Positions 37,979 through 63,096 of a stretch of 64,000 nucleotides of DNA are shown here, piece by piece; within the stretch, counting starts at the first letter, position 1; each line of letters opens with the position of its first letter. This DNA comes from an uncultured Clostridia bacterium (lineage in GTDB: Bacteria; Bacillota; Clostridia; TANB77; CAG-508). The notes under the pieces were generated by a model. The model was not told where the DNA came from. It searched no databases and saw only the letters and a list, made by a program, of their open reading frames with translations. Where the stretch lies: the NCBI GenBank assembly GCA_944386165.1, contig CALXAA010000002.1:32695-96694 (forward strand), in the 5' to 3' direction. The translations under genes were made by a program, and so were the position numbers.

Positions 37979-40143
<2,165 letters not shown>

Positions 40144-40158
40144 TTTTTTTCGCCTCTT

Positions 40159-42477
40159 TTATTTTTTATTCTTCTTCAATTTTACTACAACTGCATCTTC
40201 ATTATCAAAAATAAATCCTGAATCAGTGGTATCTGTTTGAATTGGGTCTATTTCATTTCTGTCATCAACAAAATCTATATGTTTTGGATCAAATTTTGTT
40301 TTTCGTCTATTACCATTATCTTCGTCAATAACTCCTGATGTAAATTTTTCAAAATTATATACTTTTATTGGTTGAACTTCTTTGTATTTTGCTCCAACAA
40401 AGTCTAGTTTTCCTTCATTAATTTGATATGCTCCATTATCACCTTTTAATTTAATTGCAGCACTTTTAAATGGCATTGTTCCTAATTTATTTGCTGCCCA
40501 GTAGTCTTCATAAGTATAATTTACATCACCCCATTTAGAGTCATATTCAAGTTTACTCATATCCATACTGTTTTTCCACTTCCAAGTTCTTCTTTGATAC
40601 ATTTCTTTACGCCACCACTCTAATTCTGTATTATCCGCATTTCCTAAGAAAATTTTGTTTGCACAGTTTGAAATAATTGTTTCTCTATATTTCATATCTG
40701 GTGCATTTCCTTCTAGTTGCGATAAGTTTTGTGCTGTAATTGTTGTTGCAACTTTGTATTTTCTATATAAAGTAAATATTGCTTCTGTATCTTTACATAT
40801 GAAGTCTGGGAATTCATCTATATAAAAGAAATGTGGAATTCTACTTTTTTCATTTCCTGGCCTTCTTAATACTGCATTTTGCATTGATAATATGAAAAAC
40901 AATCCAAATGCTTTATGACTAGTTCTTCCTAAGTCTCCTCTACGAGTACATACAAATGTAACTTCTCCATTTGCTAAAACTTTGTCAAAATCAATATTAT
41001 TGTGTCTATTACATAGTATTGATTTTACCCCAGGTAATCTTAATAAATTATCTAATTGTGATACTGCTAGGTATAAGTATTGTTCTGTTAGTGCTTTTCC
41101 AACTCCATTTGCATAAAAGTTTCTTTTAAAATATGCTATTTGACTTTCATATTGTTCTGCAAGTTCTGGGTCTTGACACATAATTTCACACATTTTTTCT
41201 ACTAAACTATAATTTGTAAGCATTTTTAACATATCATCTAAATTTGGTAAATTACCACTATTTAAACGAGGGTACATTTCTTTTAACATTATTGCTAAAT
41301 TTTCAATAGCTTGAATTATAAATTCTTCTCTATAAACATCATCAATTTCTGGATGAGAATTTACATACATTGCTTTTAGTGCTGATGAAATTGTTATTGC
41401 AATTTTATTTGCGTCATCATATATAAATGGATTTAATCCTATTGAATCTCTATTAGATGGATCAATAATATTGTATTTAATATGAAAATTATCACATATT
41501 TCCATCATTTTTGATGTTGATTCATAATCTGGTGATATTGATGTTATTCCTAAATCTCTGTAAGAGTATTCATCACCAAGTGTAGATAATATCATTTTAT
41601 TCATATATGATTTATATATTGGCTCTTTTCCTGGAGCTGGTGTTAACATATTTAAAGAAAAGTTTTGATTTAAATAATCATTATTATAAGGCCTATTTAA
41701 AACTGCAATACCAGTTTTTAGAGCTGTATATCCCATTTCTTTGGCATTAGCCCAATAAAAAGCTTTCTTTTCTATGTCTTTTGCAACAAAAGGCTCTATA
41801 ATTAATGATGTTTTACCTGTTCCTGATCCACCACAAACAAGTAAAGATTGATATCTTTTTTGTTCACCAAATACTACTTTTTTTCCTGTTTCAGCATCAT
41901 TACATATTGTTATATCACATGTAAATGGTCCATGTCCTTGTTTTGTGTCTGATAAATTTATTCCTTTATAATCCCAAAGTGATCTTGTCCAGTCTTTACT
42001 ATCTCCAACACCTAAACGTATGAATTTTATTACACTATAAAATGTTACTAATGGGAAATATATTGCAAGAGATGTTAGTGCTGGTCTTATTAATTCAGAA
42101 AAGTTTGTAACTAGTTCAGTATAACCAGGTAATGAAATTAAAAGTAGCCAAATACCTTGATTTACCCATTGTGTTACCATTGAAATTGCAATAATATAAA
42201 GACCTATAACATATACATAAAATAATGTTACTTTAGTATTTTTTGATGATGCAAATTCTGATGCTCCTGAAAATAAATATGCAAATACAGGACATGCTAA
42301 TGCAAATGTATACATAAATGGTCCCCAATAAGACACAGAAACTCCTGTAAATATCATAATTAACATTTCAACTAATCTGTCTATTGCTAAATAAAATGAA
42401 ATTAATGTTAACACATATGTTACAAATGTATTTCTGCTTGCATTTAATTTCTTTAAAAATTTATCAAATAATTTCAT
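40159..42477 (-). CDS. Membrane-anchored P-loop ATPase resembling type IV coupling proteins (TraG/TraD/VirD4-like)
   Basis: ~150-aa N-terminal multi-TM region; Walker A LLVCGGSGTGKTS; Walker B HFFYIDEFPDF; TITAQNLSQLEG box typical of T4CP/FtsK-like ATPases. Confidence 0.5.
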   Translation of the reverse strand: MKLFDKFLKKLNASRNTFVTYVLTLISFYLAIDRLVEMLIMIFTGVSVSYWGPFMYTFALACPVFAYLFSGASEFASSKNTKVTLFYVYVIGLYIIAISMVTQWVNQGIWLLLISLPGYTELVTNFSELIRPALTSLAIYFPLVTFYSVIKFIRLGVGDSKDWTRSLWDYKGINLSDTKQGHGPFTCDITICNDAETGKKVVFGEQKRYQSLLVCGGSGTGKTSLIIEPFVAKDIEKKAFYWANAKEMGYTALKTGIAVLNRPYNNDYLNQNFSLNMLTPAPGKEPIYKSYMNKMILSTLGDEYSYRDLGITSISPDYESTSKMMEICDNFHIKYNIIDPSNRDSIGLNPFIYDDANKIAITISSALKAMYVNSHPEIDDVYREEFIIQAIENLAIMLKEMYPRLNSGNLPNLDDMLKMLTNYSLVEKMCEIMCQDPELAEQYESQIAYFKRNFYANGVGKALTEQYLYLAVSQLDNLLRLPGVKSILCNRHNNIDFDKVLANGEVTFVCTRRGDLGRTSHKAFGLFFILSMQNAVLRRPGNEKSRIPHFFYIDEFPDFICKDTEAIFTLYRKYKVATTITAQNLSQLEGNAPDMKYRETIISNCANKIFLGNADNTELEWWRKEMYQRRTWKWKNSMDMSKLEYDSKWGDVNYTYEDYWAANKLGTMPFKSAAIKLKGDNGAYQINEGKLDFVGAKYKEVQPIKVYNFEKFTSGVIDEDNGNRRKTKFDPKHIDFVDDRNEIDPIQTDTTDSGFIFDNEDAVVVKLKKNKK

Positions 42478-42580
42478 GCTTTTTTCCTTTCATTTTCTAT
42501 TTTATATTTAAATAAATAAATTCTTTTCCTACATTTATATTATCCTACAAAATAGTGAAAATTTCAAGTTTTTTTTAAAA

Positions 42581-47135: not shown

Positions 47136-48941
47136 TTATTCAGCCAAATTCTGCTTTTGCAATATCATACCTGATGAATTTCGAATTACAGTTTTTAAAT
47201 TATATTTTTCAATTTCTTCATCAATTTTATCATAATCTCCACCATAATCTATTTTAAATAATACTATATATTCTGTATCACTTTCCATAAATTTATCTAA
47301 ATTTTTAGTTATTTCTCCTGTTGAAGAATCTGTAAAATTATTTGGATTTTTCAATATAGAATAAATCCACCTTGCACGTCCATTATTTCCTTGAGAACGG
47401 CAGAAATATGTGCTTTTCTTTGTTTCATCAGGATCATTTATATTTTTATTATAATAATCTAATATTTTTAATTCATCTGTATATACTAATTCATATTTTT
47501 TACTTATTTCTTCTCCATTGTATTTATATATATCAAAAACGTAAAAATTCTTTTTATATACAATTGCCTCAAAAATTCCTATAGCATAAATTCCAATTAG
47601 TATATATGTTGCTATTTCTATTTTTTTGTTTTTTTGAATAATTATTTTTATTATTTCATAACTACTTGAAACTAATACTATATATGCCATATAGTAAATT
47701 TTGTAAAAATAGTATTCAGAAACAATGCTAAGTTTCATTCCTAATAAAATTAATAAATAAAATACTATTGTTGTAAATAAAAATTTATCATTAAAAATAT
47801 CTTTTTTCTTTATAAAATTATATATTAAATATATTTCTGATAATAATAAATAAGGAATTATGTTTGTAATTAAATTTTCATATATAAATCCTTCTGTTCC
47901 AATTGCAGATATATAATTTATTGGTCCAGAAGTTGTCTGCAATAATGGTAATAAAATAAAATATATTACTCCTATTAATCCAGGAATTACTAGTGTAATT
48001 ATTACATCTAGGAAAATTTCAAAATTAAATAATTTTCTTCCTTTTGCCTTATTATCACTTATTGTTTGCCATAATATAGTAATAAATACTACTGGTGCAA
48101 AATAATAATAAGAAAACATTATTCCGAAATTTAGCAAAAATAAAGCTATTCTCTTATAAAAAGTAGGTAATTTTGCTTTCATTATTATTAGTATTCCTAT
48201 TATTATATCTAGTCCTACTCCTAAATATGAAAATCCTGCAAATAAACTGTTTAGTTGATATGCTAATGCATAAAAAAATGTAAATACTAAAGCAAGTATT
48301 TTATATTTAATATTTTTACTATGCATTGCAAGTAGTACATACATTAATAGTGCGGATAAAATCCAAACTAATATATCAAATAAGAAATATAATTGGCAGA
48401 AAAATGTTTCACTTATAATACCATCAAAAAGTTTTAAGAATATTCCTGTATTTATATATGCTCCTGTCATTAAATAAGATATTCCAATCCAATTTATACT
48501 ATCTGAATTTTCTCTTGGTAATAGTGTTGAATATCTGTAAAAGTCATCAGCTGCAAAGTAATGTGTTGCAGCATCTGTAACACCATGTTTTAATTTAATG
48601 TTTACACTATAATTTTTTATTACTATGGTAATTGTTACAATTAGTATAATTATAACTGCTATTAAATCAACCCAATTAATATAATATTTTTGCATTTTTT
48701 TTGTTTTTATTAATCTAATTATTGGAAAAATTGAAAATATTAAATTTACAATAGATAGATTTAATAATGTGGATTTTATTGTTAAAAAGTACATAATTGT
48801 ACAAATAAAAATATTATAAGCTAATAAAAAACAAGCACTTATAATTATACTAAATATTAAATTTTGTTTTTCTTCTTTTTTATATATTAATAAATATGAT
48901 AAAAATAATACTAATAGTGTTAAAATATATATAATACTCAT
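47136..48941 (-). CDS. Large polytopic membrane protein (>=12 TM) with ~150-aa C-terminal soluble domain; last gene of the Tad-like operon
   Basis: 601-aa ORF; hydrophobic helices throughout; hydrophilic tail from ~aa 450. Confidence 0.4.
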   Translation of the reverse strand: MSIIYILTLLVLFLSYLLIYKKEEKQNLIFSIIISACFLLAYNIFICTIMYFLTIKSTLLNLSIVNLIFSIFPIIRLIKTKKMQKYYINWVDLIAVIIILIVTITIVIKNYSVNIKLKHGVTDAATHYFAADDFYRYSTLLPRENSDSINWIGISYLMTGAYINTGIFLKLFDGIISETFFCQLYFLFDILVWILSALLMYVLLAMHSKNIKYKILALVFTFFYALAYQLNSLFAGFSYLGVGLDIIIGILIIMKAKLPTFYKRIALFLLNFGIMFSYYYFAPVVFITILWQTISDNKAKGRKLFNFEIFLDVIITLVIPGLIGVIYFILLPLLQTTSGPINYISAIGTEGFIYENLITNIIPYLLLSEIYLIYNFIKKKDIFNDKFLFTTIVFYLLILLGMKLSIVSEYYFYKIYYMAYIVLVSSSYEIIKIIIQKNKKIEIATYILIGIYAIGIFEAIVYKKNFYVFDIYKYNGEEISKKYELVYTDELKILDYYNKNINDPDETKKSTYFCRSQGNNGRARWIYSILKNPNNFTDSSTGEITKNLDKFMESDTEYIVLFKIDYGGDYDKIDEEIEKYNLKTVIRNSSGMILQKQNLAE

Positions 48942-48990
48942 TGCAATAAATTACCTTTCTTAAGCACGTCAAAATTTTACATATATAAAT

Positions 48991-49527
48991 TTATGTTGTA
49001 GCTCCATTTACTGCAATTGTTCCAGAAGCTGTAGCAACTATTATATGTAAATCTTCTCCTTTTATTTTATAATAAATATTTTTAATAGATTGTGATAATG
49101 TTTTACTAGTATTTCTTGCAGTTACAAAAATTATATCATCTTCTTTTAATACTATTTTGTCTGCTCCTCCATCTGTATTAGATAACTTATCTTCTATTTG
49201 ACTTGTATAAATTGAATAATATTCATTTTGTCCGATTTCTTGACTTTCTTCAGTATATTTTTGTGATGCATTTTTATCTAAGATTTTCACTTCAATATCA
49301 ACTTCATAAGTGTTTCCTGAACTATTCAATCTATTTAAATATCTTTGATAATTTTCATTAGTAATTACTCCATTTTTTAGGACTTCATCTACAAAAGAAG
49401 CTGTTGCATTTTGAGCTACCAATTGTGCTATATCATCATTTCTATCTGATAATAAAACTAATGGAACTAAAAACATTAATACTGCTGCTACAATTATTCC
49501 AATTATTGATGTAGGTGTATCTTCCAT
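48991..49527 (-). CDS. Membrane-anchored protein in Tad-like locus (single N-terminal TM; possible pseudopilin/TadE-G-like)
   Basis: MEDTPTSIIGIIVAAVLMFLVPLVLLS; RBS AAAGGAGG. Confidence 0.4.
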   Translation of the reverse strand: MEDTPTSIIGIIVAAVLMFLVPLVLLSDRNDDIAQLVAQNATASFVDEVLKNGVITNENYQRYLNRLNSSGNTYEVDIEVKILDKNASQKYTEESQEIGQNEYYSIYTSQIEDKLSNTDGGADKIVLKEDDIIFVTARNTSKTLSQSIKNIYYKIKGEDLHIIVATASGTIAVNGATT

Positions 49528-49552
49528 ACCCAGCCTCCTTTTATAAAAATTT

Positions 49553-50245
49553 TTATTGATATAATTTATAAGTTATAATTCTTTTTTTGGTCTTATTTAT
49601 TTCTGCAACTTGAGTTTCAGGTATTTCTGTACCTGCTTCAGCATCTTCTTGGTAATATTCACCTAAGATTTCAATAAATTTTTTGTCTACTAAAAAGTCA
49701 TATAATCCATCTGGATAATATATTTGTCTTTTATATTTTGTATAATATTTTTTATCGTCTTTTTGATAATTATTTCCATATAAAATAAAGTCTAAGTGTT
49801 GTATTGCATCTTCAACACCGCCTAAAACTTCTTCCTCTAGATCAACAAAATTAATTTCAATTTCTTCTCCATAATCATCTTTTTCTCTAGGCAAAACAGT
49901 AACACTTTCTCCATCAACAATTTCAGTTTCTTTACTACTATTTCTTGTCTTATAATATAAAGTAATAGGGTTACCATTTTGGTCTAAAAATAATATTTTA
50001 TAATTTTCTTTATATGCTTTATACATTGCAGGAACAATTGTTTCAACTCCAACAATTCGGTTATTATTTTCATCTACACCATTTGCTTCTGTAACATATA
50101 CATAACTTTGAGTTTTGTCTTCATTTGTCATTATATTTGTAATTGCTCTTGTAGCATTAGAAAAAGTGGATATACTAAGAGAAAGTGCAACTACAAATAT
50201 TAATACTCCAAATCCAATTTCCAATGCTTTGGTTGCGTTCTCCAT
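49553..50245 (-). CDS. Pilin-like protein paralog 4 (conserved MENATKAL N-terminus)
   Basis: MENATKALEIGFGVLIFVVALSLSIS; 5' end and RBS AGGAAAGGAG near-identical to three neighbouring genes. Confidence 0.5.
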   Translation of the reverse strand: MENATKALEIGFGVLIFVVALSLSISTFSNATRAITNIMTNEDKTQSYVYVTEANGVDENNNRIVGVETIVPAMYKAYKENYKILFLDQNGNPITLYYKTRNSSKETEIVDGESVTVLPREKDDYGEEIEINFVDLEEEVLGGVEDAIQHLDFILYGNNYQKDDKKYYTKYKRQIYYPDGLYDFLVDKKFIEILGEYYQEDAEAGTEIPETQVAEINKTKKRIITYKLYQ

Positions 50246-50274
50246 AATATATCCCTCCTTTCCTATGCTTAATT

Positions 50275-50694
50275 TTAGTTACTACCAGAACTTCCTACTT
50301 CTGTAACTGTAATTGATGTAATTAATCCAGAATTTTTGTCTTTATTACAAACTACAGTATATCTTTTACCTGTTCCTACACTAGGTTGTGTATCTGCATC
50401 TATAGCTAAAGTAACAGCACCATCTATACTGATTTTTCTTGTATCATCTGATTCTGTTAAATTATGTTGATAAACAGTTTTTATAAGAGAATTTACTCTT
50501 GAACCTGCTACAGAAGTTCCTTCATAGTTTTCATATGTAGAGTTAAATGTATTTATTTCAAGATTAGATAAAGCTTCTTCTCCACCTTGTAATTGGTCTT
50601 GTCCCATACCTACTACATATACTCCTAATGAAATTATAATTATTACAATTAATACTGCTGCCGCAATTAAAAGGGCTTTTGTTGCGTTCTCCAT
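50275..50694 (-). CDS. Pilin-like protein paralog 3 (start taken at MENATKAL ATG; track ORF begins at a GTG 9 nt upstream)
   Basis: MENATKALLIAAAVLIVIIIISLGVYVVG. Confidence 0.5.
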   Translation of the reverse strand: MENATKALLIAAAVLIVIIIISLGVYVVGMGQDQLQGGEEALSNLEINTFNSTYENYEGTSVAGSRVNSLIKTVYQHNLTESDDTRKISIDGAVTLAIDADTQPSVGTGKRYTVVCNKDKNSGLITSITVTEVGSSGSN

Positions 50695-50750
50695 ATAATT
50701 CACATCCTTCCATTTTTATTTTTTATATAAAATTGAATTTTAAAAACTTA

Positions 50751-51176
50751 TTAAATTTGTTCAAATAAAATATATTTTATTCTTCCATTTTTTTCATTAT
50801 ATTCTACTTTTGATGATTTAAATTTTGCATCTAAGAAAAACTGAACAAATTGTTCTGTTCCTTGATTGTAAATTTGCTCCATCTTATATGTCTTTTCACC
50901 TTCAGTAAGATATATTTCTATTTCTATTGAGTTTTCGTCATTTTGTATAAAAAAATTATTTTCATCTTTTTCTACACCATTTTTTATGTTTTTATCAACT
51001 GCTTTATTAATAATTGATGCAATATCTATTCCATAAATTTCCTTGTTTAAATAAATTTCAAATTCTTCATTTTCAGCAAAGATTTGACTTTTATTTATAG
51101 CAATAGAATGATAATTAAATAAAATAATGCATACAATTATAACAACAATTGCCAAAATTATTAATATTTTTTTCAT
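50751..51176 (-). CDS. Small membrane-anchored protein in Tad-like locus (start taken at MKKILIILAIVV)
   Basis: Single TM; RBS AGAGGA 4-5 nt upstream of ATG 51176. Confidence 0.4.
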   Translation of the reverse strand: MKKILIILAIVVIIVCIILFNYHSIAINKSQIFAENEEFEIYLNKEIYGIDIASIINKAVDKNIKNGVEKDENNFFIQNDENSIEIEIYLTEGEKTYKMEQIYNQGTEQFVQFFLDAKFKSSKVEYNEKNGRIKYILFEQI

Positions 51177-51227
51177 AAATTCCTCTTTAATTATAACATT
51201 TATGTTTTTTATTCGCAATAATTTAAA

Positions 51228-51731
51228 TTAAATTTTTTCAAATGTTATTTTATATACTCTTTTTGAATCTGTACTTACATCAATTTTATTGCATTTATAT
51301 TTAGAGCTATAATTATATTGTAACCATTCAGATAAAAGTTCCGGATCCCCAACAACTCTTTCTAAACTTTCATATGTTGCACTTGTTTCTTCACCTGTTT
51401 TTGGACTAATATATCCTTTTATTGTCACTTGAACATAGTTTGTAGTTCCATCACCTATATAAGAATCTCCAGTTAATTCATTTTCAAAATTGTTATCATA
51501 AGCAATATTTGCAACTGTAATAACATCTTGAAATGAAAGTTCTTCATTTTCTTCTGTTTGGTAATTAAAAAATTGAGTATTAAATTTATTTATAGCATTA
51601 TTTTCTATTATTTCCTGTGTTTCACTCATATAAGAACTTATTCCACTAAATAAATAAACTCCCATGGATAATATTATCATTCCTATTAGTACACCTGCCG
51701 CTATAAGCAAGGCTTTTGTTGCATTCTCCAT
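51228..51731 (-). CDS. Pilin-like protein paralog 2
   Basis: MENATKALLIAAGVLIGMIILSMGVYLFS; RBS AAAGGAG. Confidence 0.5.
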   Translation of the reverse strand: MENATKALLIAAGVLIGMIILSMGVYLFSGISSYMSETQEIIENNAINKFNTQFFNYQTEENEELSFQDVITVANIAYDNNFENELTGDSYIGDGTTNYVQVTIKGYISPKTGEETSATYESLERVVGDPELLSEWLQYNYSSKYKCNKIDVSTDSKRVYKITFEKI

Positions 51732-51747
51732 TAATACTCCTTTCTTA

Positions 51748-52584
51748 TTAATTAAGAATTATATTACCATTACTGTCAGTACAAACTCTAAAACTCATTT
51801 TATTTACTCTACCTGTAACAGAATCATATTCTAATTCAATACAATCAAAGTGTGCTCTTTTAAATTGAGTAAACTCATAATATTTTAAAGTAACATCTTT
51901 TATAGTTGAAACCATATCTACATATTGAGAATCTGTAGTATATGTTGTGGTATTTGAACCACAAACATTTACTTTGAAAATATTCTTTAGTAAATTTGCT
52001 CTTTTTCTTCTTGCTTCATTTCTATTAGAAATTTCATATTCATTTGATGCTCCACTATTAGTTTCTTCAACCATAATGTTTGCAATATTTGATGATAATT
52101 GTTGCAATAGAGTTTCTGTTATTCGAACAGATCCAGAAACTGATTGTAAAGTACTTATTAAACCTGTTGATGGGTCATTAACTCTACTTGAAAAATCATT
52201 TAATTTATTTTCTGTAATTTTGCTATTTGATCCACTCAAAAGATATTTATTACTATTTGCACTTTCATAATTAAATTGTTTAAACAAATCTGTACTTATA
52301 AAATCAACTTCAAACTCCATTTCTGCATAACCATTTTCAGGTTCTGTAGCATTATAATCATCAACCATATTCATAATTGAAAGTAATTCATTACCTCTAA
52401 TTTCTTGATTTTCATAACTTTCAAATTTTTTATTAAATTCTAATCTTTGTTGTTCTTCTGTCTTATTACTATTACTTTGATAAAAACCAGAAACTTGATT
52501 ATACAGTAACAAAAGTGCTGATAATATTATTAATCCAATTAATACACTAGCAACAATTAGTAAAGCTTTTGTTGCATTTTCCAT
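51748..52584 (-). CDS. Pilin-like protein paralog 1 (largest, 278 aa)
   Basis: MENATKALLIVASVLIGLIILSALLLLYNQ; RBS GAAAGGAG. Confidence 0.5.
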   Translation of the reverse strand: MENATKALLIVASVLIGLIILSALLLLYNQVSGFYQSNSNKTEEQQRLEFNKKFESYENQEIRGNELLSIMNMVDDYNATEPENGYAEMEFEVDFISTDLFKQFNYESANSNKYLLSGSNSKITENKLNDFSSRVNDPSTGLISTLQSVSGSVRITETLLQQLSSNIANIMVEETNSGASNEYEISNRNEARRKRANLLKNIFKVNVCGSNTTTYTTDSQYVDMVSTIKDVTLKYYEFTQFKRAHFDCIELEYDSVTGRVNKMSFRVCTDSNGNIILN

Positions 52585-52611
52585 ATAATCAAACTCCTTT
52601 CCTATTAAATT

Positions 52612-54687
52612 TTATTGTAGTCCTGAAAATGCTCCAGACATACTTGTTAGTCCAATAAATACTAGTGGTACAATTAAGTATCCAACAAATAGACAAATTA
52701 ATGGGGCAAAACCTACCACTTTTCCTATTATACCTTTTTTAGATATAAATTGTTCATTTGTAGCTTTTCTCTTTTCTCTATGATAATCTCTATCTGCATC
52801 TAGCTCATCAAATGCCTCTCTAATTGGAATTTTTTCTACTGCTGCTTGCAAGCTTTCTACAATTCTTATCATAGCTTGATTTGATACTGAATTCTTTAGT
52901 TCTTCTAATGCCTCCCATGCTCCTGCTTCATAGTTATTTACACATTTTGAAATTGGTTCTTTAAATATATTAGAATATCTTTCTAGCCATTCAAGAATCA
53001 TTTCTACATTAACTCTTTCAATTTTCATAAGCATTAAAATAATTGTTTGGAATTGCATTACTTCGTTTTCCATTTCCATTTGTCTCATTCGTTTTTGGAA
53101 CATCATTAACCATACTGGTGCCATATATCCAACTATTGCAAATCCAATTGCTAATAATTCTTCAAACCATTTCATGCTTTCAGAATTAACTACATCTAAT
53201 TTGCCTAAAATTCTCTCAGCATCAGTTTCTAAATTTTCATCTGTTTCTGTATAATATTTAGATTTTATCATTTCATCTTGAATATCTTCAACTGTAATAT
53301 CAAGATCACCTTTTAATTTATTTATAAAATAATTATCTTGCTCAGTTAATTCCATAGCATTTTGCAAGTCTTTATCAGACATCGTACCAAGAACCTGAGT
53401 TCTTGTAGTTGGTTCAGTATAAACATAATTAATTGCTAGTTTATGTAATTGTGCAGTAAATACAATTGTTGCAATAAAAGTAACTATAAATAGTGCTATT
53501 CTATTTACATATACCCATTCCATTTTTGATTTTGATGCAGAATCTTTTAGCAATTTCTGTATTTTTTTATAATCTTTTGAACCTGGCTTTGGAACAAATA
53601 AATTTATAAATTTTTTCAAAATTGGATTTTTATATACTTTTTCTTGCCAAGGGTGTTCATTGTTTGTTGCTGTTTGAACTCCTCCATTATCTTTCAATTT
53701 TCTAGTTAAGATATAAGAAACAACTGTTAATATAACAATTAAAATTTGAGCAATCATTCCTAATTTCCCATTGTAAAAGCTACTAGTAAATGAGAAGTTC
53801 GACATACACCAACTTTTTAATGGCTCTAACAATAAAACTGGCACAATTGAAATTACAGATAAACTCTGAAAAACATAATTTAATTTATCTCTTTTTAAAA
53901 TTTCAATTTGCATTTCTTGTGTAATGTTATCTATGTTTTTTAAATATAAAGAAGAATTATCCTTATCTTTTCTATCTCCAAATTCTTTTGTCATATATGA
54001 TATACCAGCAAACTCTTTTAAATAACTGTTTGGAGCCACATCATAATATTTTTCAAGTTCTGTTTCAGGATCATCAGAAATTAAAATTTCATAAATTTTT
54101 TCACCTTGTTTAGAAACATTTTTTTCATCATCTAGTGAGACTTGGTAAATTGCTTCTTCAACCATATTAAATTCGTGATATGCATGTCTAATTTCTGCAA
54201 AAAAATCTACTTGTTCTTTTAACAAGTTATTATCAATTTTATCTACCATTCCATCAACCATTGTATCTATAATGAAAAGTTCAAAAATTAATAAAATACT
54301 CATTAATAAGAAATTTTCTCTTGTTAAAGAAATTGTAATTAGTATGACTGGTATTAAAATTATAATAGCCTTAAATAATATCTTTGCCGAATCTCTTCTT
54401 GTGGCATATTCATCATCTATGTTTATAATCTCTAATCTTCTACGAAGTTTATATAAATATCTTTTTAAGAAAGGTATTTTATTAAAGATAATATATGCTT
54501 TTTGATAAAAAACCTCAATTGAGAAACTGCTACTTCTAGTTCCTTGTTGTAACTTTTTTATTTGTCGGTATTCTGATTTTGCAAGTTTCTTATTCAAAAT
54601 TACATATGCTATAATAATTAACACAAATAATCCTATTGCGCCAAATAATATATATTTTAGCATATCTGTATTCATTAAATCAAACAC
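52612..54687 (-). CDS. Fused TadB/TadC-like (GspF/T2SSF-type) platform membrane protein
   Basis: 691 aa with two blocks of paired TM helices separated by cytoplasmic helical domains; immediately downstream of the CpaF-like ATPase. Confidence 0.5.
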   Translation of the reverse strand: MFDLMNTDMLKYILFGAIGLFVLIIIAYVILNKKLAKSEYRQIKKLQQGTRSSSFSIEVFYQKAYIIFNKIPFLKRYLYKLRRRLEIINIDDEYATRRDSAKILFKAIIILIPVILITISLTRENFLLMSILLIFELFIIDTMVDGMVDKIDNNLLKEQVDFFAEIRHAYHEFNMVEEAIYQVSLDDEKNVSKQGEKIYEILISDDPETELEKYYDVAPNSYLKEFAGISYMTKEFGDRKDKDNSSLYLKNIDNITQEMQIEILKRDKLNYVFQSLSVISIVPVLLLEPLKSWCMSNFSFTSSFYNGKLGMIAQILIVILTVVSYILTRKLKDNGGVQTATNNEHPWQEKVYKNPILKKFINLFVPKPGSKDYKKIQKLLKDSASKSKMEWVYVNRIALFIVTFIATIVFTAQLHKLAINYVYTEPTTRTQVLGTMSDKDLQNAMELTEQDNYFINKLKGDLDITVEDIQDEMIKSKYYTETDENLETDAERILGKLDVVNSESMKWFEELLAIGFAIVGYMAPVWLMMFQKRMRQMEMENEVMQFQTIILMLMKIERVNVEMILEWLERYSNIFKEPISKCVNNYEAGAWEALEELKNSVSNQAMIRIVESLQAAVEKIPIREAFDELDADRDYHREKRKATNEQFISKKGIIGKVVGFAPLICLFVGYLIVPLVFIGLTSMSGAFSGLQ

Positions 54688-54714
54688 CTCTCCTTCTATA
54701 GTATATTTAACATA

Positions 54715-56622
54715 TTATTTATTTTTGCTTTTCACAGACTTTCCCCATGTATTTTCAATAAATTTATCAAATTCAATTGCATCTGCCTCATCCATATTTG
54801 CTCTCATCTCACTAATATTTTGGTCAGAAATTTTATTTGTTAATTGGTATTCTCCATCTATATATTCTAATACATTTTGATAAACATAAAGTTTTTGTTC
54901 TGTAACTTTTGAAAAATATGTTGTTGCATTATCAAAAAATTTAACCCATTTATCATCCATATTTTTTTCAGTTCTATAATCGTAATTGTATTCTGAAGTA
55001 TCTTTTACTGGTATACATTCTGTTACTCTTTCTATATATCTTCTACCTCTAAAGTCTTTTTTTAAGTGAATATCAAAATTTAAAACTTGTACAACTTGTT
55101 CTTCTGCAGTTTTTTCATTTGTAAATACTCCTGCTCTTAACATTGAGTTTCTTAAAGCAGTTACTAAATCTGGGAATGTTTTAGCATGGTGAGTAAATAA
55201 AGTAAATTTAGAAGCAACTTGTGCAGATTGTATCATCCAAGATGCTACTGGGTCTGTTGCAACCTCACCAATGATATTAACAGAACCATCTGTTTTTTTC
55301 TGTACGTCCAAACACTCTTGACCAGAAATTGTATCTGTTTCACGCATTGATAAAATATTTCTAGTTGGATATACTTTTCTTAAGTGTAACTCAAATGCAG
55401 TTTCTGTAATACGTAAGTTCATTGTTTCATATATATTTTCAATTAATCCCATAAGTAATGTTGTTTTACCACAACCCTGCTCACCAGTAATTGAAACAAT
55501 TCTTGCACCTTTTACAAGATATTTTAATAAATCAATTGCTTTTTCCTTTCCTTGCATATCTCCTGTCCATTGTTCAACTGTTGCAAGTTTTACGTCAAAT
55601 TTTCTTACGAAAAATGCCCATGTTTCAGACATACTTGGTCTTACTACAACAACACGTGATCCGTCTTTCATTTCATTGATTTTATATCCATTTGTATCAG
55701 ACAATTGTCCTGGGTTATTATACTTATAAATATTTTGGCATACTCTTTTTAATTCTGATTCTGATCCAAATGATAAAAATGCTAAACGTATTGATTTACC
55801 TTGGAAAAATATCCAAATACTATCACATGCACGTGGAACTTTATGTTCAGCTACTTGTTCTATATAATCACCAGCTCCAGATTGTGCTACTTGATTTAAG
55901 AAACTTTCTGGTAAACCAGATACACCACCAGATACACCATCTATATTCATGTCTCTTATTTCATCTATAGAACTATATCCTTTATAATGTTGATAAATTC
56001 GTTGAACAACTACTTCTAATTTGTCTCTAAAATTAAGTATAAATCTTTCTTTTTCATAAATTTCATCAATTTCTTCAGCTGTAATAACATAAGATGGTTT
56101 TGTTTCACCTTGTAAATATTTTAAAGAAGCTAGATTATATCTTTTAATAAGTTCTGTTAAAGCTTCATATCCAAATTCTTTTTTATACATATATAGTAAA
56201 ATGTCAAATTTATCTTGTGATGATAATAAAGATGGCACATCAAAAGGGATTGCTCTAGATATGTTAGTTTCATCAACACCATATTCTTTTTCTAATATAT
56301 CAGATATTAATTCTTTTACATATTTTTTATCATTAATATCTCCATATGTACAACCTTTCAAAGCTTTTTTTAATGCATATTTTTTATTTTTTCTTCTCTT
56401 TAATTCCTCTTCAGAAAGTCCAATATCATATAAGTTTACTTTTGTAATTTCATCTAATCTCTTTTTTACATACTCTCTCATTACATCAATAGTGTATGTT
56501 TTATCATCTTTTTCAACTTCAGTTTCTACTTCAGCATTTTTGTTTTTATTTATATAATATAATAATAGTATAATAGCTATTATAAAAACTAAAATTATTA
56601 AAAGTATATTAAATAATGTCAT
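54715..56622 (-). CDS. CpaF/TadA/VirB11-family secretion ATPase with unusual N-terminal TM anchor and ~330-aa extension
   Basis: Walker A GEQGCGKTTLL; Walker B-like IIGEVATD; His-box FTHHAKT; N-terminus MTLFNILLIILVFIIAIILLLYY is hydrophobic. Confidence 0.6.
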   Translation of the reverse strand: MTLFNILLIILVFIIAIILLLYYINKNKNAEVETEVEKDDKTYTIDVMREYVKKRLDEITKVNLYDIGLSEEELKRRKNKKYALKKALKGCTYGDINDKKYVKELISDILEKEYGVDETNISRAIPFDVPSLLSSQDKFDILLYMYKKEFGYEALTELIKRYNLASLKYLQGETKPSYVITAEEIDEIYEKERFILNFRDKLEVVVQRIYQHYKGYSSIDEIRDMNIDGVSGGVSGLPESFLNQVAQSGAGDYIEQVAEHKVPRACDSIWIFFQGKSIRLAFLSFGSESELKRVCQNIYKYNNPGQLSDTNGYKINEMKDGSRVVVVRPSMSETWAFFVRKFDVKLATVEQWTGDMQGKEKAIDLLKYLVKGARIVSITGEQGCGKTTLLMGLIENIYETMNLRITETAFELHLRKVYPTRNILSMRETDTISGQECLDVQKKTDGSVNIIGEVATDPVASWMIQSAQVASKFTLFTHHAKTFPDLVTALRNSMLRAGVFTNEKTAEEQVVQVLNFDIHLKKDFRGRRYIERVTECIPVKDTSEYNYDYRTEKNMDDKWVKFFDNATTYFSKVTEQKLYVYQNVLEYIDGEYQLTNKISDQNISEMRANMDEADAIEFDKFIENTWGKSVKSKNK

Positions 56623-56626
56623 CTTA

Positions 56627-57457
56627 TCACCTCATTTGCAATTCTTGTAATCTATTTATTATGAACTCTGCTACTTTTTGCACTTCTTTCATAAAAAAGT
56701 AATTTTTATCTGTATTATCTTTTATATTACTTAATTTTAAGAATAAATCCATAACATTAGCTTCTTCTGAAGCTTCAAAATATAAAGTATTATAAGGAAT
56801 TACTAATAATTCTCCCTTTTCTTCTAAATATTTCCCAAGATTTTTTTTATTATATTTTGAGTCATTATCATATTTAGCTATTAGTACAGAATTTTTTAAA
56901 GAATTTAGATTTTTATCTTTGTTTTTTAGGTTTATATAGTTCTCAATATCGGAAAGTTTTTGAGTTGTAACATATAAATTCAAGTCTGAAATTTCTAGAA
57001 TCTGTTTTTTAATTTCCATATTTAAACGTCCATCTAAATCTACTAAAACAATGTCATAATATTGATTTGCTACTTGTAATACTTTACAATAGTTTTGATA
57101 TATCTCATTATAAATTTCTACATTTTTACCTGCAACATTATCAGATAAAGCACTAAAACCAAATAATACTTCAAATCTTCCTTTTAAAATCGCATGAGAA
57201 TAATCTGTTATAACACTTGGTTCAATTTTATTACTTGTAATTAATCTCATAAGTCCTTCTATACCATTTTCTACTTCTAAGCTGCCTGGTTCACTTATAA
57301 GTTTGCTTTTATTTTTATTTTCTTTCCAAAAGCATCTTTTAACAGTTTCATCATTAACACTTGTAGAGACTAATAATATTTTTAAATTACGTTCAATGGC
57401 CATTTTAGTTGCAATAGCAACTGTCGAAAGTGTTTGTCCGATTTGTTTTTTTATCAC
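56627..57457 (-). CDS. Degenerate ParA/MinD/CpaE-like protein (pseudo-ATPase; Walker A lost)
   Basis: TVAIATKMAIERNLKILLVS in place of GGKGGVGKTT; retains YYDIVLVDLDG Walker B-like block. Confidence 0.45.
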   Translation of the reverse strand: MIKKQIGQTLSTVAIATKMAIERNLKILLVSTSVNDETVKRCFWKENKNKSKLISEPGSLEVENGIEGLMRLITSNKIEPSVITDYSHAILKGRFEVLFGFSALSDNVAGKNVEIYNEIYQNYCKVLQVANQYYDIVLVDLDGRLNMEIKKQILEISDLNLYVTTQKLSDIENYINLKNKDKNLNSLKNSVLIAKYDNDSKYNKKNLGKYLEEKGELLVIPYNTLYFEASEEANVMDLFLKLSNIKDNTDKNYFFMKEVQKVAEFIINRLQELQMR

Positions 57458-57494
57458 TACTCCATAAAGTTACAATTGACATCCTTTTTCTCCT

Positions 57495-58181
57495 TTATAA
57501 ATCTTTAATTATATTTTTTATATTTTTTTGACCTAATGATGGCTCTATTTCATTTACTAAATAAGTAACATTTTCTTTAAAAATGTTGCTTAAATTTTTG
57601 AATTTTATATTTTCTAATCTTTGATTTTCTATTAATGCTGCTTGATCTCCATTTTCTAATGGAAAATATAATTTTGTTTCTTCCCATTCAACCTTTAGGC
57701 CTAATGCTAAATAATCAAAATATTGTTCTTCTTCTTTAAACATCTGTTTTGAATAAAATAATTTTGACATTTTTATTGGATATTCTAAAAAGCGTAAAAG
57801 TTCAATACCTTTTTTTAATGAATATGCATCAAATGATGTAACGTAATATAATAAATCAAAACTAGATAATTCAAAATTTTCAAAACCATAATAGTCATCT
57901 ACATCAACGAAAATATAATCATAATCTAAACTATCATTTTCTTCAATTCCACAATATTCTTTTACTTGATTTATATCTCCAAATCCAACAGCTATATCTA
58001 TACCTTGGTAATCTGTTAGGTATGATATAGTTGGCATTATTGTTGGAATTACATATTTGGTTTTTTGAATTGATGTTGCATCAATAAATAATACTCTTGC
58101 TTCTGCTTTAGTTAAAATTTTAGAAATACAAAGTATTAAATCTGTTTTATCAAAAACCCCCACAAATCCAATTTTTTTCAT
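57495..58181 (-). CDS. Second degenerate ParA/CpaE-like protein
   Basis: MKKIGFVGVFDKTDL in place of a deviant Walker A; YDYIFVDVDD block. Confidence 0.4.
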   Translation of the reverse strand: MKKIGFVGVFDKTDLILCISKILTKAEARVLFIDATSIQKTKYVIPTIMPTISYLTDYQGIDIAVGFGDINQVKEYCGIEENDSLDYDYIFVDVDDYYGFENFELSSFDLLYYVTSFDAYSLKKGIELLRFLEYPIKMSKLFYSKQMFKEEEQYFDYLALGLKVEWEETKLYFPLENGDQAALIENQRLENIKFKNLSNIFKENVTYLVNEIEPSLGQKNIKNIIKDL

Positions 58182-58258
58182 ATATCTATCCTTTCAAGTC
58201 TATTATCTTTAATATTATCACATAGTAAGGGCATATGCACTATGCCCCTACAATTTAT

Positions 58259-59371
58259 TTACTCTACCACATCTAGAGATTCAATATAGTTTCTTCTAGC
58301 AGATTGTGCATTTGTTGTGCTTTCATCCATTCCAGTTTGAACATTTGCATTATATGATGGATCATTATTTATTGAAGATTGTAAATATTCATTTCTTGCA
58401 GTGGTTGCTGGAGCTTGATATCTTCTTCTTAATTCATTTTTTGCTTCTTCAACTACATTAGGATTTGAAATATTTCCATTTGCATCTACTCCTAATAGTG
58501 TTGTAACTGCAGAGTTTGGTCTATATGTTGGTATTGAAGCATCTTGCATTCCTGGTTCTTTGTATTTAGAAGCATATAATTTAGCTCCTTGTATACCATA
58601 AGCTTCTACTATAGCACTAGATAATGAAAGAATTTCATCCTCTCTTAAATTTAATCTAATTGTATCAGCTACATATGTCCCATCACTATTTAAAGGTATA
58701 TCTACTTGTTTCTTTGATACTACTATAAAGTTTTGTCCATCTGGAGTCATTAATCTTATATCAACATAATCTCCAGACATTAAGTCTACTGGTAAAACTA
58801 TCATATTGTAGTCTTCTACCCTTACATCATCAGTTACTGGTGCATCTGATTGTACGACTAAATTAGGTGTAATAACAGTATTTGCATCCATATCTAATTT
58901 AGCTAATACTGGTACATTATTTAATTCAATAGTTTCTGTGTTTCCATTTCTATCTTGTGTATAATAATTTCCTGTTGAAGAATCTTGGTAAACTCTTACT
59001 GTTTGTCCTTCTGCATCTGTGTAATATAGTCCTTCTGCATCTGTATTTAACATAGTTCCACTTGTTGTTTGTAGAAACCATCCACTTATTACCTCAGCTA
59101 CAGATGTAGCATTTGCTGGTATTGTACTTCTATCAACAGATTTTAATGTAAACATATCTTCTGTTAGTACTTGTCCTGATTTTACATCTTGGTTTAGTAC
59201 ATAAACTCTAGCAAGTGCAGCTTGTGCCGCATCTTGATCGTCTTTCATATTTTTTAAAAGTAATAGTAACAATACTATTATAATTCCTGTTATTAATAAT
59301 GTAATTAATACACCTGTTAAAAATGATGTTCTTGCCTTTTTTTGCATTGGATTCATTGCCATTTTTATCAC
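58259..59371 (-). CDS. CpaB/RcpC-like Flp pilus assembly protein (SAF domain)
   Basis: N-terminal TM LTGVLITLLITGIIIVLLLLLL, then SAF-like VYVLNQDVKSGQVLTEDMFTLKSV; first gene of the operon. Confidence 0.55.
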   Translation of the reverse strand: MIKMAMNPMQKKARTSFLTGVLITLLITGIIIVLLLLLLKNMKDDQDAAQAALARVYVLNQDVKSGQVLTEDMFTLKSVDRSTIPANATSVAEVISGWFLQTTSGTMLNTDAEGLYYTDAEGQTVRVYQDSSTGNYYTQDRNGNTETIELNNVPVLAKLDMDANTVITPNLVVQSDAPVTDDVRVEDYNMIVLPVDLMSGDYVDIRLMTPDGQNFIVVSKKQVDIPLNSDGTYVADTIRLNLREDEILSLSSAIVEAYGIQGAKLYASKYKEPGMQDASIPTYRPNSAVTTLLGVDANGNISNPNVVEEAKNELRRRYQAPATTARNEYLQSSINNDPSYNANVQTGMDESTTNAQSARRNYIESLDVVE

Positions 59372-61065: not shown

Positions 61066-63096
61066 TTACTTAATATATTTAGGTAATAGTAGTCCACTTA
61101 TTTCTCCCAATTCTCTTCCGTTTTCTTTTATTTTTGAACTTTTAAATCCTTCTACTCCGTTTTCATCTTTTCCATCTATAATTCTTGGTAGAACCATTAA
61201 TATATATGGATTTCCTAATTTGTCAGATTTATTTAACATAAACCAATACATACTTGCTTCTTTTCCATTTTTTGTTCCTACTGGATATTGAACTAATGCA
61301 TCTTTATAATTATTTTTTATATAATTAAAGTCATATATTCTTAATGCTTCTTTCATTGGAATTGTATCCATATTAAACATTTTTAGAGAAATATTGCTTA
61401 GCTTCATTTCTGAAGAGTTGAAGAAATTATCATAATCTATTATTGAATATTGTATTTTGCCATTGTTTTCTGTAATATTTCTTATATAAACATTTTGTAC
61501 ATCTATTTTACAACTTCCAAAACCTAAAGGTTTAGCTTTTCCTATTTTATGACACAAGTCTTTATTATCATATTTTAAATTAATTACAGCTATTAATTCA
61601 TTCAAATTTTCTTCATTTATATTATTAAAATAAATTTTAAAATTAAATTTTGTGTTTACTTTTACCGGTGTTACTTCACAATTTCTTTCTGTTTTTTCAT
61701 TTGTAACACTATTTTGTATATCATCATGATGCCAATACATTTTTCTTCCTCTTATTGATATATCTCCTTCTTTTATATCAACTTTTCCATTTTGTGTTAT
61801 GCGTACATCATAATTAAAGTCAAAATTTTGTGGAAGGTTTTGAAATTGATTGTTTGGAGCATATAATGCATAAAATGCAGCATTTGCTATATGTGGACTT
61901 GCAAGTTCTTTAATTATCATCTTTTTGTCATATGGATTTTCTTTTGCCTCATAAATAGCATCAGATACACGAATTTTTGATGATATGGCATCATTTTCAG
62001 ATACAAAACCAAACATATTACATGCATTACATATATTATTTTTATCTATACATGGCATAAATTCTCCTACTAATTCATGTAATTTCCTGTGATATGCTTC
62101 TTTACCTATTGCTGCTAATGACAAATATCTTCTATTCTGAGTATCTGGTTTACTATACCATACTGGAAGTACTTGTAATTTTGCTATATCATATCCTGCA
62201 TACCAAACTTTATTTTTTCCTCTTATTTTTTGATTAAAAGCTTTATCATTATACATATCAAAAATTTCTTTTAAATTTTTAATACTTTCTTCTATATTAG
62301 ATATTTGTACTTCTACATTTTGTTTAACAAAAATACTATCATGTATATTATTATTTCCATTTTTATCTACTTCTTTTTTTCCACCCAATTCTCCAACAAA
62401 CAAAATGCCTTCTGTATTTCCGCTTCCAATAGATATAACATATGGTGATAAATGTGGATTATTTGATGGCTTAAATGTAAATTTAACCCTATCTCCTGTT
62501 TTATAAATTTTATCTCCAACTTTTAATCCGTTATTTTCATCAACAAAATAAGTTGCACAATTTTGAACACTTGCATCTTTAGGTTTGCCTTTACCTCTTC
62601 TACATGTATTTACAGCATACCTTTTTGCCTCATATAAATGCCACTTTCCATTATTGTCTTTTTCCAATATTCCAGGCATTTTTATATCTTTTGATCTTGA
62701 AATAAATGATATGTCATCATTTAATGTTGACATACATGAATTTGTAAATACTTCATAATCAGATCTTAGCATTCCTCTAATTTCACTTCCAGGTATTACA
62801 GGTACAGTAAAATTATTTTCTGTACTTTTTTCCCCATAATTAAAGAACTTATATTTTCTAAACTTCTTATCTCCACCCAAATTTTCTTCTTCAACATCAT
62901 TTGTACTTGGAACTATAATTGGTGTTTTTGCTATTAATTCACATTCAATAAATCCTGTTAATTTTCCTCTTCTTTCTGATTCTGGCAATCTTTCACAATT
63001 TTCTGGAAGAGTTATAAAATTATAAGGATTAATATATTTTACATTTTTATCAATACTTACATTATTACTTTTTCTTTGATTATTATAATTTTGCAT
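61066..63096 (-). CDS. Large RAMP-superfamily protein (two RRM/RAMP-like halves; Cas7/Cmr1/Csm5-like)
   Basis: 676 aa; RAMP motif VPVIPGSEIRGMLR (aa ~95); Cys cluster CIDKNNICNACNMFGF; C-terminal glycine-rich loop GKAKPLGFGSCKI; first glycine-rich segment SIGSGNTEGILFVGELGG; RBS AAGGAGGA; start abuts stop of upstream gene (TAAATG). Confidence 0.55.
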   Translation of the reverse strand: MQNYNNQRKSNNVSIDKNVKYINPYNFITLPENCERLPESERRGKLTGFIECELIAKTPIIVPSTNDVEEENLGGDKKFRKYKFFNYGEKSTENNFTVPVIPGSEIRGMLRSDYEVFTNSCMSTLNDDISFISRSKDIKMPGILEKDNNGKWHLYEAKRYAVNTCRRGKGKPKDASVQNCATYFVDENNGLKVGDKIYKTGDRVKFTFKPSNNPHLSPYVISIGSGNTEGILFVGELGGKKEVDKNGNNNIHDSIFVKQNVEVQISNIEESIKNLKEIFDMYNDKAFNQKIRGKNKVWYAGYDIAKLQVLPVWYSKPDTQNRRYLSLAAIGKEAYHRKLHELVGEFMPCIDKNNICNACNMFGFVSENDAISSKIRVSDAIYEAKENPYDKKMIIKELASPHIANAAFYALYAPNNQFQNLPQNFDFNYDVRITQNGKVDIKEGDISIRGRKMYWHHDDIQNSVTNEKTERNCEVTPVKVNTKFNFKIYFNNINEENLNELIAVINLKYDNKDLCHKIGKAKPLGFGSCKIDVQNVYIRNITENNGKIQYSIIDYDNFFNSSEMKLSNISLKMFNMDTIPMKEALRIYDFNYIKNNYKDALVQYPVGTKNGKEASMYWFMLNKSDKLGNPYILMVLPRIIDGKDENGVEGFKSSKIKENGRELGEISGLLLPKYIK

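Follow-up and report, generated by a model that had tools for sequence, protein, structure and literature searches.

A VirD4/TraG/TrwB-type coupling ATPase homologue fixed in the chromosome of uncultured gut Clostridia, probably one half of a plasmid-derived DNA-processing module

Type IV coupling proteins (T4CPs) and relaxases are hallmarks of mobile elements, and genome mining uses both to call plasmids, integrative conjugative elements (ICEs) and integrative mobilizable elements (IMEs). Here we describe a gene for a T4CP-like membrane ATPase that lies in a housekeeping region of an uncultured Clostridia bacterium. The DNA analyzed, referred to below as the window, is a 64,000-nucleotide stretch of contig CALXAA010000002.1 (assembly GCA_944386165.1, positions 32,695 to 96,694 of the forward strand). 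In the list of open reading frames (ORFs) of the window the T4CP-like gene occupies 40159..42477 on the minus strand, begins with ATG and encodes 772 amino acids (aa); at about 28% GC some 8-9% of random codons are stops, so that by simple arithmetic the chance of a 772-codon open frame is about 1e-30. On its 3' side lie queA and then a frameshifted tgt, and on its 5' side an ArsP_2-type permease with ten transmembrane (TM) segments, followed by obg, trpS and spoIVB. The other window ORFs that were scanned are housekeeping genes as well (hrcA, dnaK, dnaJ, sbcCD, ABC transporters, a two-component system and rsmB), a Tad-like pilus cluster is found at 47136-59371 on the minus strand, and GC content is even along the window. 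The ORFs of the 64-kb window scanned against Pfam yielded no relaxase, VirB4 or integrase and no other conjugation gene; attachment repeats were not specifically searched for. An earlier reading of the bare sequence, here called the original prediction, had likewise reported housekeeping neighbours (queA, a permease, obg, trpS) and no conjugation genes. The features discussed below are, in order of position:

40144..40158, minus strand: 15-bp junction from the stop codon of the T4CP-like gene to the start of queA (sequence comparison with relatives).
40159..42477, minus strand: T4CP-like gene, homologue of the VirD4/TraG/TrwB family of coupling ATPases (Pfam, AlphaFold, fold search, ratio of nonsynonymous to synonymous substitution rates, dN/dS).
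40162..40332, minus strand: predicted disordered acidic tail, residues 716-772 (predicted local distance difference test score, pLDDT, below 50).
40333..40596, minus strand: small C-terminal beta-rich domain, residues 628-715 (model strands; TrwB-type structures have no such domain).
40813..40830, minus strand: Walker B motif FFYIDE, residues 550-555 (D554 and E555 invariant in the clade).
40969..41412, minus strand: all-alpha domain inserted in the nucleotide-binding domain, residues 356-503 (model helices, partial PF10412 match, TrwB alignment).
41809..41832, minus strand: Walker A motif (P-loop) GGSGTGKT, residues 216-223 (motif and conservation).
41968..42477, minus strand: N-terminal polytopic membrane domain, residues 1-170, with 4-5 predicted TM helices (hydropathy, model).
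42539..42567, minus strand: sigma-70-type promoter-like site TTGAAA-N17-GATAAT upstream of the T4CP-like gene (consensus scan).

In a Pfam search the 772-aa protein matched PF12696 TraG-D_C with 36.8 bits (cut-off 22) and PF02534 T4SS-DNA_transf with 28.6 bits (cut-off 20.1), and a partial match to PF10412 TrwB_AAD_bind fell just under its cut-off (20.2 against 20.5 bits). There was no Pfam match to DUF87 or VirB4, and none to the FtsK_SpoIIIE catalytic domain (PF01580) at E-values up to 1. The nearest NCBIfam model, NF045973, which describes a VirD4-like conjugal transfer protein of the CD1115 family, gave 57.5 bits over residues 334-679 against a cut-off of 250; judged by this score, the protein is related to that family but stands outside it. 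A sequence search of the PDB and a tblastn search of phage genomes each returned no matches. The AlphaFold model, built on a 53-sequence alignment, reached a pLDDT of 82.4 and a predicted template modelling score (pTM) of 0.73, and its best matches in a Foldseek comparison with the PDB were TrwB (E about 1e-11, TM-score up to 0.70 on the target, alignment spanning about 530 columns), Cagbeta (2e-11) and DotL (5e-8). HerA (1e-7), VirB4 (1e-6) and DndH came behind the T4CPs, the HerA and VirB4 structures scoring four to five orders of magnitude worse than TrwB. Because the best fold matches are TrwB, Cagbeta and DotL, with HerA and VirB4 clearly lower, we assign the protein to the T4CPs rather than to the HerA or VirB4 families; it is a true homologue of the VirD4/TraG/TrwB-type coupling ATPases. 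Pfam, fold search, hydropathy and model therefore agree on the T4CP-like membrane ATPase with an N-terminal polytopic anchor that had been proposed, and a different P-loop family, the alternative named at the time, is not the better match by profile or by fold.

The catalytic motifs were found where they had been claimed, with GGSGTGKT beginning at residue 216, FFYIDE at residue 550, and the TITAQNLSQL box also present. Their conservation was assessed in an alignment of 121 members of the window's clade and in a wider-family alignment of 22 sequences that includes plasmid copies. Across the 121 clade members the TRRGDLG block, the Walker A lysine and the Walker B D-E pair are invariant; in the wider family G216 of Walker A is invariant and K222 and T223 are at least 90% conserved, all three being invariant within the clade. 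Hydropathy and the AlphaFold model place four to five long hydrophobic helices within residues 15-159, the long model helices of the membrane domain covering residues 15-44, 53-70, 79-114 and 127-159. This domain, which is common to the plasmid relatives, is as conserved within the clade as the ATPase core (mean 0.77). Relative to a textbook T4CP the protein shows three departures, namely a larger membrane domain, the beta-rich domain at residues 628-715 and a disordered acidic tail carrying an invariant short motif. The beta-rich domain has model strands at residues 628-634, 652-658, 672-678 and 684-690, and F709 is invariant in the 22-sequence alignment, plasmid copies included. The short motif of the tail comprises P745, Q747, D752, F-x-F-D-N and A, several of these positions being invariant in the 121 sequences; it is common to the window's clade and to sister clades that carry the relaxase-like partner described below, and we infer that it may dock that partner.

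Compared to the VirD4/TraG/TrwB T4CPs (TrwB of R388, Cagbeta, DotL), the window's protein has the same P-loop core, inserted all-alpha domain, Walker A and B motifs and QN..QL block, and it matches T4CPs of clostridial plasmids in its entire architecture, polytopic N-terminal domain included. TrwB and VirD4 have two membrane helices, whereas the window's protein has four to five and an extra C-terminal beta domain; at 772 aa it is also shorter than the plasmid copies (920-1000 aa). Unlike classical T4CPs, it is encoded by a chromosomal, single-copy gene in a housekeeping context, which is vertically inherited, strongly constrained and without VirB4 or channel genes or a relaxase nearby. Like the FtsK/SpoIIIE and TcpA translocases, it has several membrane helices at the N-terminus and then a P-loop motor of the ring-forming kind, classified in the FtsK-HerA superfamily, but it lacks PF01580, and its fold and profiles lie on the T4CP branch.

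Constraint on the gene was measured by dN/dS, which was 0.054-0.058 against the relatives L001 and L002 and 0.03-0.04 among those relatives, compared to 0.08-0.10 for queA, 0.09 for obg and 0.06 for trpS. The T4CP-like gene is thus held as strongly as these three genes, or more strongly. More than 120 clusters are full-length at at least 70% identity to the protein. In the metagenome assembly collection, 177 blocks from independent gut metagenomes contain the identical protein, and its neighbours were the same in 10 of the 10 contexts shown. Contigs were scanned with the single protein, which reaches close relatives (at least 81% identity), and deeper contexts were obtained through representative proteins and exact-sequence look-ups. 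The order ArsP_2-T4CP-queA-tgt was kept in all 11 relatives recovered, comprising two further contigs and nine species-level metagenome-assembled genomes (MAGs) recorded as "uncultured Clostridia", among them Clostridium sp. 26_21 and UBA10678; T4CP identity in these relatives is 81-94%, comparable to that of obg and queA. MAGs with the window-type gene include CALYAA01, CALXCA01, CAKOVS01, DQFO01 (UBA10678), MNRO01 (Clostridium sp. 26_21) and CAKOWY01. The gene is inherited vertically as a core gene in a large clade of low-GC gut Clostridia, probably TANB77.

The promoter-like site upstream of the gene recurs at the same position in the relative L008 and is also present in L001, L005 and L009. 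Since sigma-70-type matches are common in AT-rich DNA, the weight of this call rests on its conservation; the consensus gives no hint of a sigma factor for sporulation. At the other end of the gene, L008 (12320-12460) carries a hairpin terminator and a separate queA promoter, TTGAAA-N17-TACAAT, both of which are absent from the window's junction, and the identical 15-bp junction was found in 10 independent contigs. Because the terminator and queA promoter of relatives are missing here and the gap is only 15 bp, the T4CP-like gene is probably co-transcribed with queA-tgt from its own promoter in the window's species.

A search of 1.84 billion representative proteins showed that the family is full-length and compact, down to about 30% identity. 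In contexts at 51%, 51%, 41% and 40% identity, the T4CP gene lay tail-to-tail with a gene for a protein of about 310 aa in four of four cases, and this partner matched PF13814 Replic_Relax with 27-31 bits (cut-off 25.3). PF13814 corresponds to the MOB_C relaxase class, kin to PD-(D/E)XK restriction endonucleases (PMC5357655; PMC12857230). The tail-to-tail pair was seen at loci L012, L013, L016, L018 and L021. Three of the four contexts have a housekeeping block, rpsB-tsf-...-membrane protein-rluX-rluY-(S1)-MOB_C / T4CP-murJ-hup; L012, at 40% identity, is flanked instead by DNA polymerase A and TraC-like genes and looks more mobile. Identities of the T4CP and its partner fall in step with those of the syntenic housekeeping genes (L016 against L021: T4CP 63%, neighbours 63-72%), and the murJ / T4CP / MOB_C / S1 block is kept at 28 metagenome loci. 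An S1-domain protein is encoded directly upstream of the MOB_C-like gene both on a Clostridium beijerinckii plasmid (L010 6764-8567) and in chromosomal blocks (L016 12494-13946). The partner resembles MOB_C relaxases such as TraX of pAD1 and MobC of CloDF13 in matching PF13814 with a score just over its cut-off, and it differs from them in being a chromosomal core gene rather than plasmid-borne.

Lineages in which the partner is not adjacent are the window's clade, L019, L020 and L025. A divergent chromosomal branch of the family (P0133, P0135, P0137 and P0142), at 25-32% identity, has degenerate Walker motifs; Walker B reads D-D instead of D-E, and P0142 is without the Walker A lysine. The loci L020 and L025 of this branch have a common fmt-hup context.

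The window's gene had been described as an orphan, which is correct locally. Neither the window nor the flanks of close relatives gave a homologue of the partner or of the S1 protein by tblastn or with a custom hidden Markov model, a partner profile search of all six-frame ORFs of the window gave no matches, and a relaxase is missing from the 64 kb and, in the 11 close relatives, from the 10 kb around the gene. For the family the description fails, as it usually pairs with a MOB_C-class protein that is probably retained at another locus in the window's lineage. A metagenome scan with the partner alignment yielded more than 30 long loci that carry the partner and have no T4CP within 10 kb. These lone partners are 77-80% identical to the L016 partner, have a GC content of 25-28% and are usually accompanied by S1; at one of them, L070, all genes are housekeeping (rluX-rluY-S1-MOB_C-acyltransferase-lepB-holB-ychF-rlmN). 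In L070 (10980-11855) and in L107-L109 (partner P0540), the gene after the MOB_C-like one encodes 291 aa and has a weak match to a 2-oxoacid dehydrogenase acyltransferase domain; L107-L109 then have a convergent gene for a tyrosine integrase, and they lack S1 between rlu and the partner. In gut metagenomes the lone-partner and window-type T4CP clades are equally abundant, the former having clusters of 395, 248 and 151 members. When trees of the two proteins were compared, each partner-adjacent T4CP clade had a matching partner clade, and what was left unmatched was the window-type T4CP clade, the large lone-partner clade and a small lone-partner group (L044/L045/L051). Because the large lone-partner clade mirrors the window-type T4CP clade, which has no counterpart, the window's lineage probably keeps its partner elsewhere in the genome, most likely at the rlu locus.

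Relatives with the full architecture were also found on plasmids. A tblastn search of plasmids recovered them from C. botulinum and C. beijerinckii, with 27-29% identity across 86-87% of the length, including WP_264647377 (C. beijerinckii p1) and WP_172688299 (C. botulinum pFWSKR40E1). On C. beijerinckii p1 the T4CP, partner and S1 homologues lie near a DUF87/VirB4-like gene, and on C. botulinum plasmids the T4CP is near DUF87; DUF87 adjoins only the plasmid relatives, not the chromosomal copies examined. The surroundings of another relative, at 29% identity, look plasmid-like and include ParM-like and Rep-like genes. In a tree built by neighbour joining, the plasmid copies fall outside the chromosomal clades, and the window's clade nests among chromosomal clades that bear the partner. 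On the simplest account, a plasmid- or ICE-type module of T4CP and MOB_C was captured by the chromosome, became fixed and was later split in the window's lineage, where the T4CP-like gene would have moved to the ArsP_2-queA position and the partner stayed at the rlu locus.

From these results we favour, with a probability of roughly 0.6, the reading that the window's gene encodes a functional coupling ATPase, predicted to be one half of a plasmid-derived T4CP and MOB_C DNA-processing module that is fixed in the chromosome. Direct support comes from family membership, the intact catalytic motifs, the membrane anchor, vertical inheritance, constraint, and the association with the partner in sister clades and on plasmids; by inference, the window's genome would also contain the partner, the substrate would be DNA and a route of translocation would exist. 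In the mechanism that we propose, a membrane-anchored hexamer would bind a relaxase-processed nucleoprotein substrate, which may dock through the conserved motif in the disordered C-terminal tail, and ATP hydrolysis would power the movement of this substrate through the membrane. Passage could be by way of a mating channel that a conjugative element in the same cell provides in trans, or through the polytopic membrane domain of the T4CP itself.

Several observations weigh against a working module of this kind. VirB4, VirB6 and other channel genes are absent from the 64-kb window and from the 10 kb around the chromosomal family members examined, and no origin of transfer (oriT) was identified, though no systematic oriT search was made. 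The PF13814 score of the partner is barely over the cut-off, and its predicted structure is weak (pLDDT 61.5, from a shallow alignment), the best fold match of this weak model being FokI (E 3e-3). The S1 neighbour resembles ordinary S1 regulators of the CvfD/GSP13 type and is missing from some lone-partner loci, and may be an unrelated neighbour rather than an accessory factor of the relaxosome. Since the Walker motifs of P0133-P0142 are degenerate, some relatives may work without ATP hydrolysis and be catalytically inactive. The link between the lone-partner loci and the window's lineage is circumstantial, with no sequence overlap and no shared MAG accession between the two; records of the partner P0540 come from the same studies as the window-type gene and from different MAGs.

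The ATPase could instead be a domesticated, self-contained translocase similar to FtsK/SpoIIIE or to Streptomyces TraB, working without a type IV secretion system (T4SS) and perhaps without MOB_C in DNA release, in chromosome handling during division or sporulation, or in protein export. Such a motor would fit the core-gene behaviour, strong constraint and vertical inheritance, the conserved sigma-70-type promoter of its own, the lack of T4SS channel genes near any chromosomal copy examined and the lack of an adjacent partner in the window's clade and at L019, L020 and L025; a polytopic membrane domain joined to a hexameric-type ATPase also parallels FtsK/SpoIIIE. Yet there is no PF01580 match, the fold is T4CP-like and not FtsK-like, the tail motif is common to the partner-bearing clades, and a relaxase-like partner is conserved and co-diverges with the T4CP in sister clades. 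Because of this co-divergence we favour a relaxase-coupled substrate and consider the self-contained motor possible but rather unlikely. Less probable still, in our judgement, is that the T4CP-like protein and the MOB_C-like nuclease constitute an order-wide chromosomal system for DNA export or transfer, a conjugation-like trait of the core genome that belongs to the organism itself, with the protein's own membrane domain or the Tad-like pilus as conduit and the exchange or release of chromosomal DNA as outcome. We found no description of a vertically inherited core-genome pair of T4CP and MOB_C in the open-access literature.

Service to the neighbouring Tad-like pilus as an accessory motor, one of the roles suggested in the original prediction, has become very improbable. 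In the window's clade the pilus cluster does end about 4.7 kb away from the T4CP-like gene, and cluster and gene family both appear widely conserved in the same group of organisms; however, pilus genes occur within 10 kb in the window's clade only and at none of about 95 other loci, and spoIVB, trpS, obg and ArsP_2 intervene. We know of no Tad system that uses a T4CP, and the cluster has its own TadA/CpaF-like ATPase (PMC11680825). We give marginally less credence to a role in anti-phage defence as mad8 of a methylation-associated defence system (MADS), which is raised by a PADLOC match of 33 bits (E 1.1e-8, residues 189-626, a model set that has no curated cut-off). This is a weak match to the generic P-loop core, and T4CP models and structures match better; the flanks are ordinary housekeeping genes (queA, tgt, the ArsP_2-type permease, obg), of which the permease, the sole flanking gene scanned against PADLOC, gave no match; and the locus is fixed and passed on vertically, unlike defence islands, which vary. 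The gene could also be the decaying and now functionless remains of an integrated conjugative or mobilizable element; this would account for the plasmid relatives and for the want of conjugation partner genes in the window, and the nearest characterized module, VirD4 with a PF13814/MobC relaxase, does occur in IMEs (PMC5357655). This, the relic offered earlier as another explanation, is contradicted by dN/dS values of 0.03-0.06, equal to or below those of neighbouring housekeeping genes, by a frame that stays full-length in more than 120 clusters at at least 70% identity, by invariant catalytic motifs, by the same location in 11 relatives and 10 further contigs, and by uniform GC without an integrase. 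Because of these selection and synteny data we regard a decaying relic as excluded for practical purposes.

Among described systems, the module closest to the favoured T4CP and MOB_C pair is that of streptococcal IME_Class_8 (Coluzzi et al. 2017, PMC5357655), which has VirD4 and a PF13814/MobC relaxase and no T4SS of its own, and the sister clades likewise pair a coupling protein of the VirD4 family with a relaxase of the MOB_C class, without a T4SS of their own. Elements of the IME_Class_8 type have a serine integrase, defined ends and a patchy distribution (PMC5357655). In contrast, the T4CP/MOB_C pair has no adjacent integrase, its housekeeping flanks are conserved over genus- or family-level divergence, and its two genes do not even lie side by side in the window's lineage. 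Since the locus has no integrase and no element boundaries and is vertically inherited, it is by definition not an IME. For components taken as signs of mobility, the family is unusual in its fixed chromosomal loci over deep divergence, in constraint like that of tRNA-modification and ribosome-assembly genes, and in being kept without an adjacent partner. This suggests either that the module was co-opted for a host function or that DNA transfer is a trait of the hosts themselves in this abundant, uncultured clade of the gut; TANB77 has been linked to immunotherapy response (PMC11680825). Such genes will give false "mobile element" calls in gut metagenomes, and the T4CP/MOB_C family is a testable entry into the co-option of conjugation parts.

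Several further observations concern the window's other genes. In gene order and protein sizes the pilus cluster at 47136-59371 matches the "TANB77-exclusive" Tad-like cluster (PMC11680825, Table 1), the sequences themselves not having been compared. The window's proteins are of 370 (SAF/CpaB-like), 228, 276, 635 (weak T2SSE ATPase), 691, 278, 167, 155, 142, 230, 178 and 601 aa, and the published ones of 358, 231, 280, 640, 693, 165, 170, 143, 146, 237, 178 and 621 aa (PMC11680825). The only big mismatch in size is the sixth protein (278 against 165 aa), perhaps through an ORF start placed too far upstream. Order and sizes together suggest that the organism is a member of order TANB77 and that "pilin 938" corresponds to the 601-aa protein. 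Near the end of the window, 61066-63096 encodes a 676-aa protein with a RAMP-superfamily domain, with small ORFs alongside, which may belong to a type III CRISPR-Cas module.

On the queA side of the T4CP-like gene, tgt (queuine tRNA-ribosyltransferase, 37979-39143) is split near 38864 into ORFs of 97 and 288 aa, apparently by a single extra C (..GAAGCAGGT[C]GGATTACAT..); the gene is intact in relatives, where it encodes 374 aa, and the split either stems from a sequencing error or marks a pseudogene specific to the strain. In one sub-clade of relatives (L005-L009, L023 and L024; for example L023 13493-14569) a 358-aa ORF without a Pfam match lies between queA and tgt. This ORF is absent from the window and from L001, L002 and L004, and in L003 a gap of about 1.9 kb separates queA from tgt.

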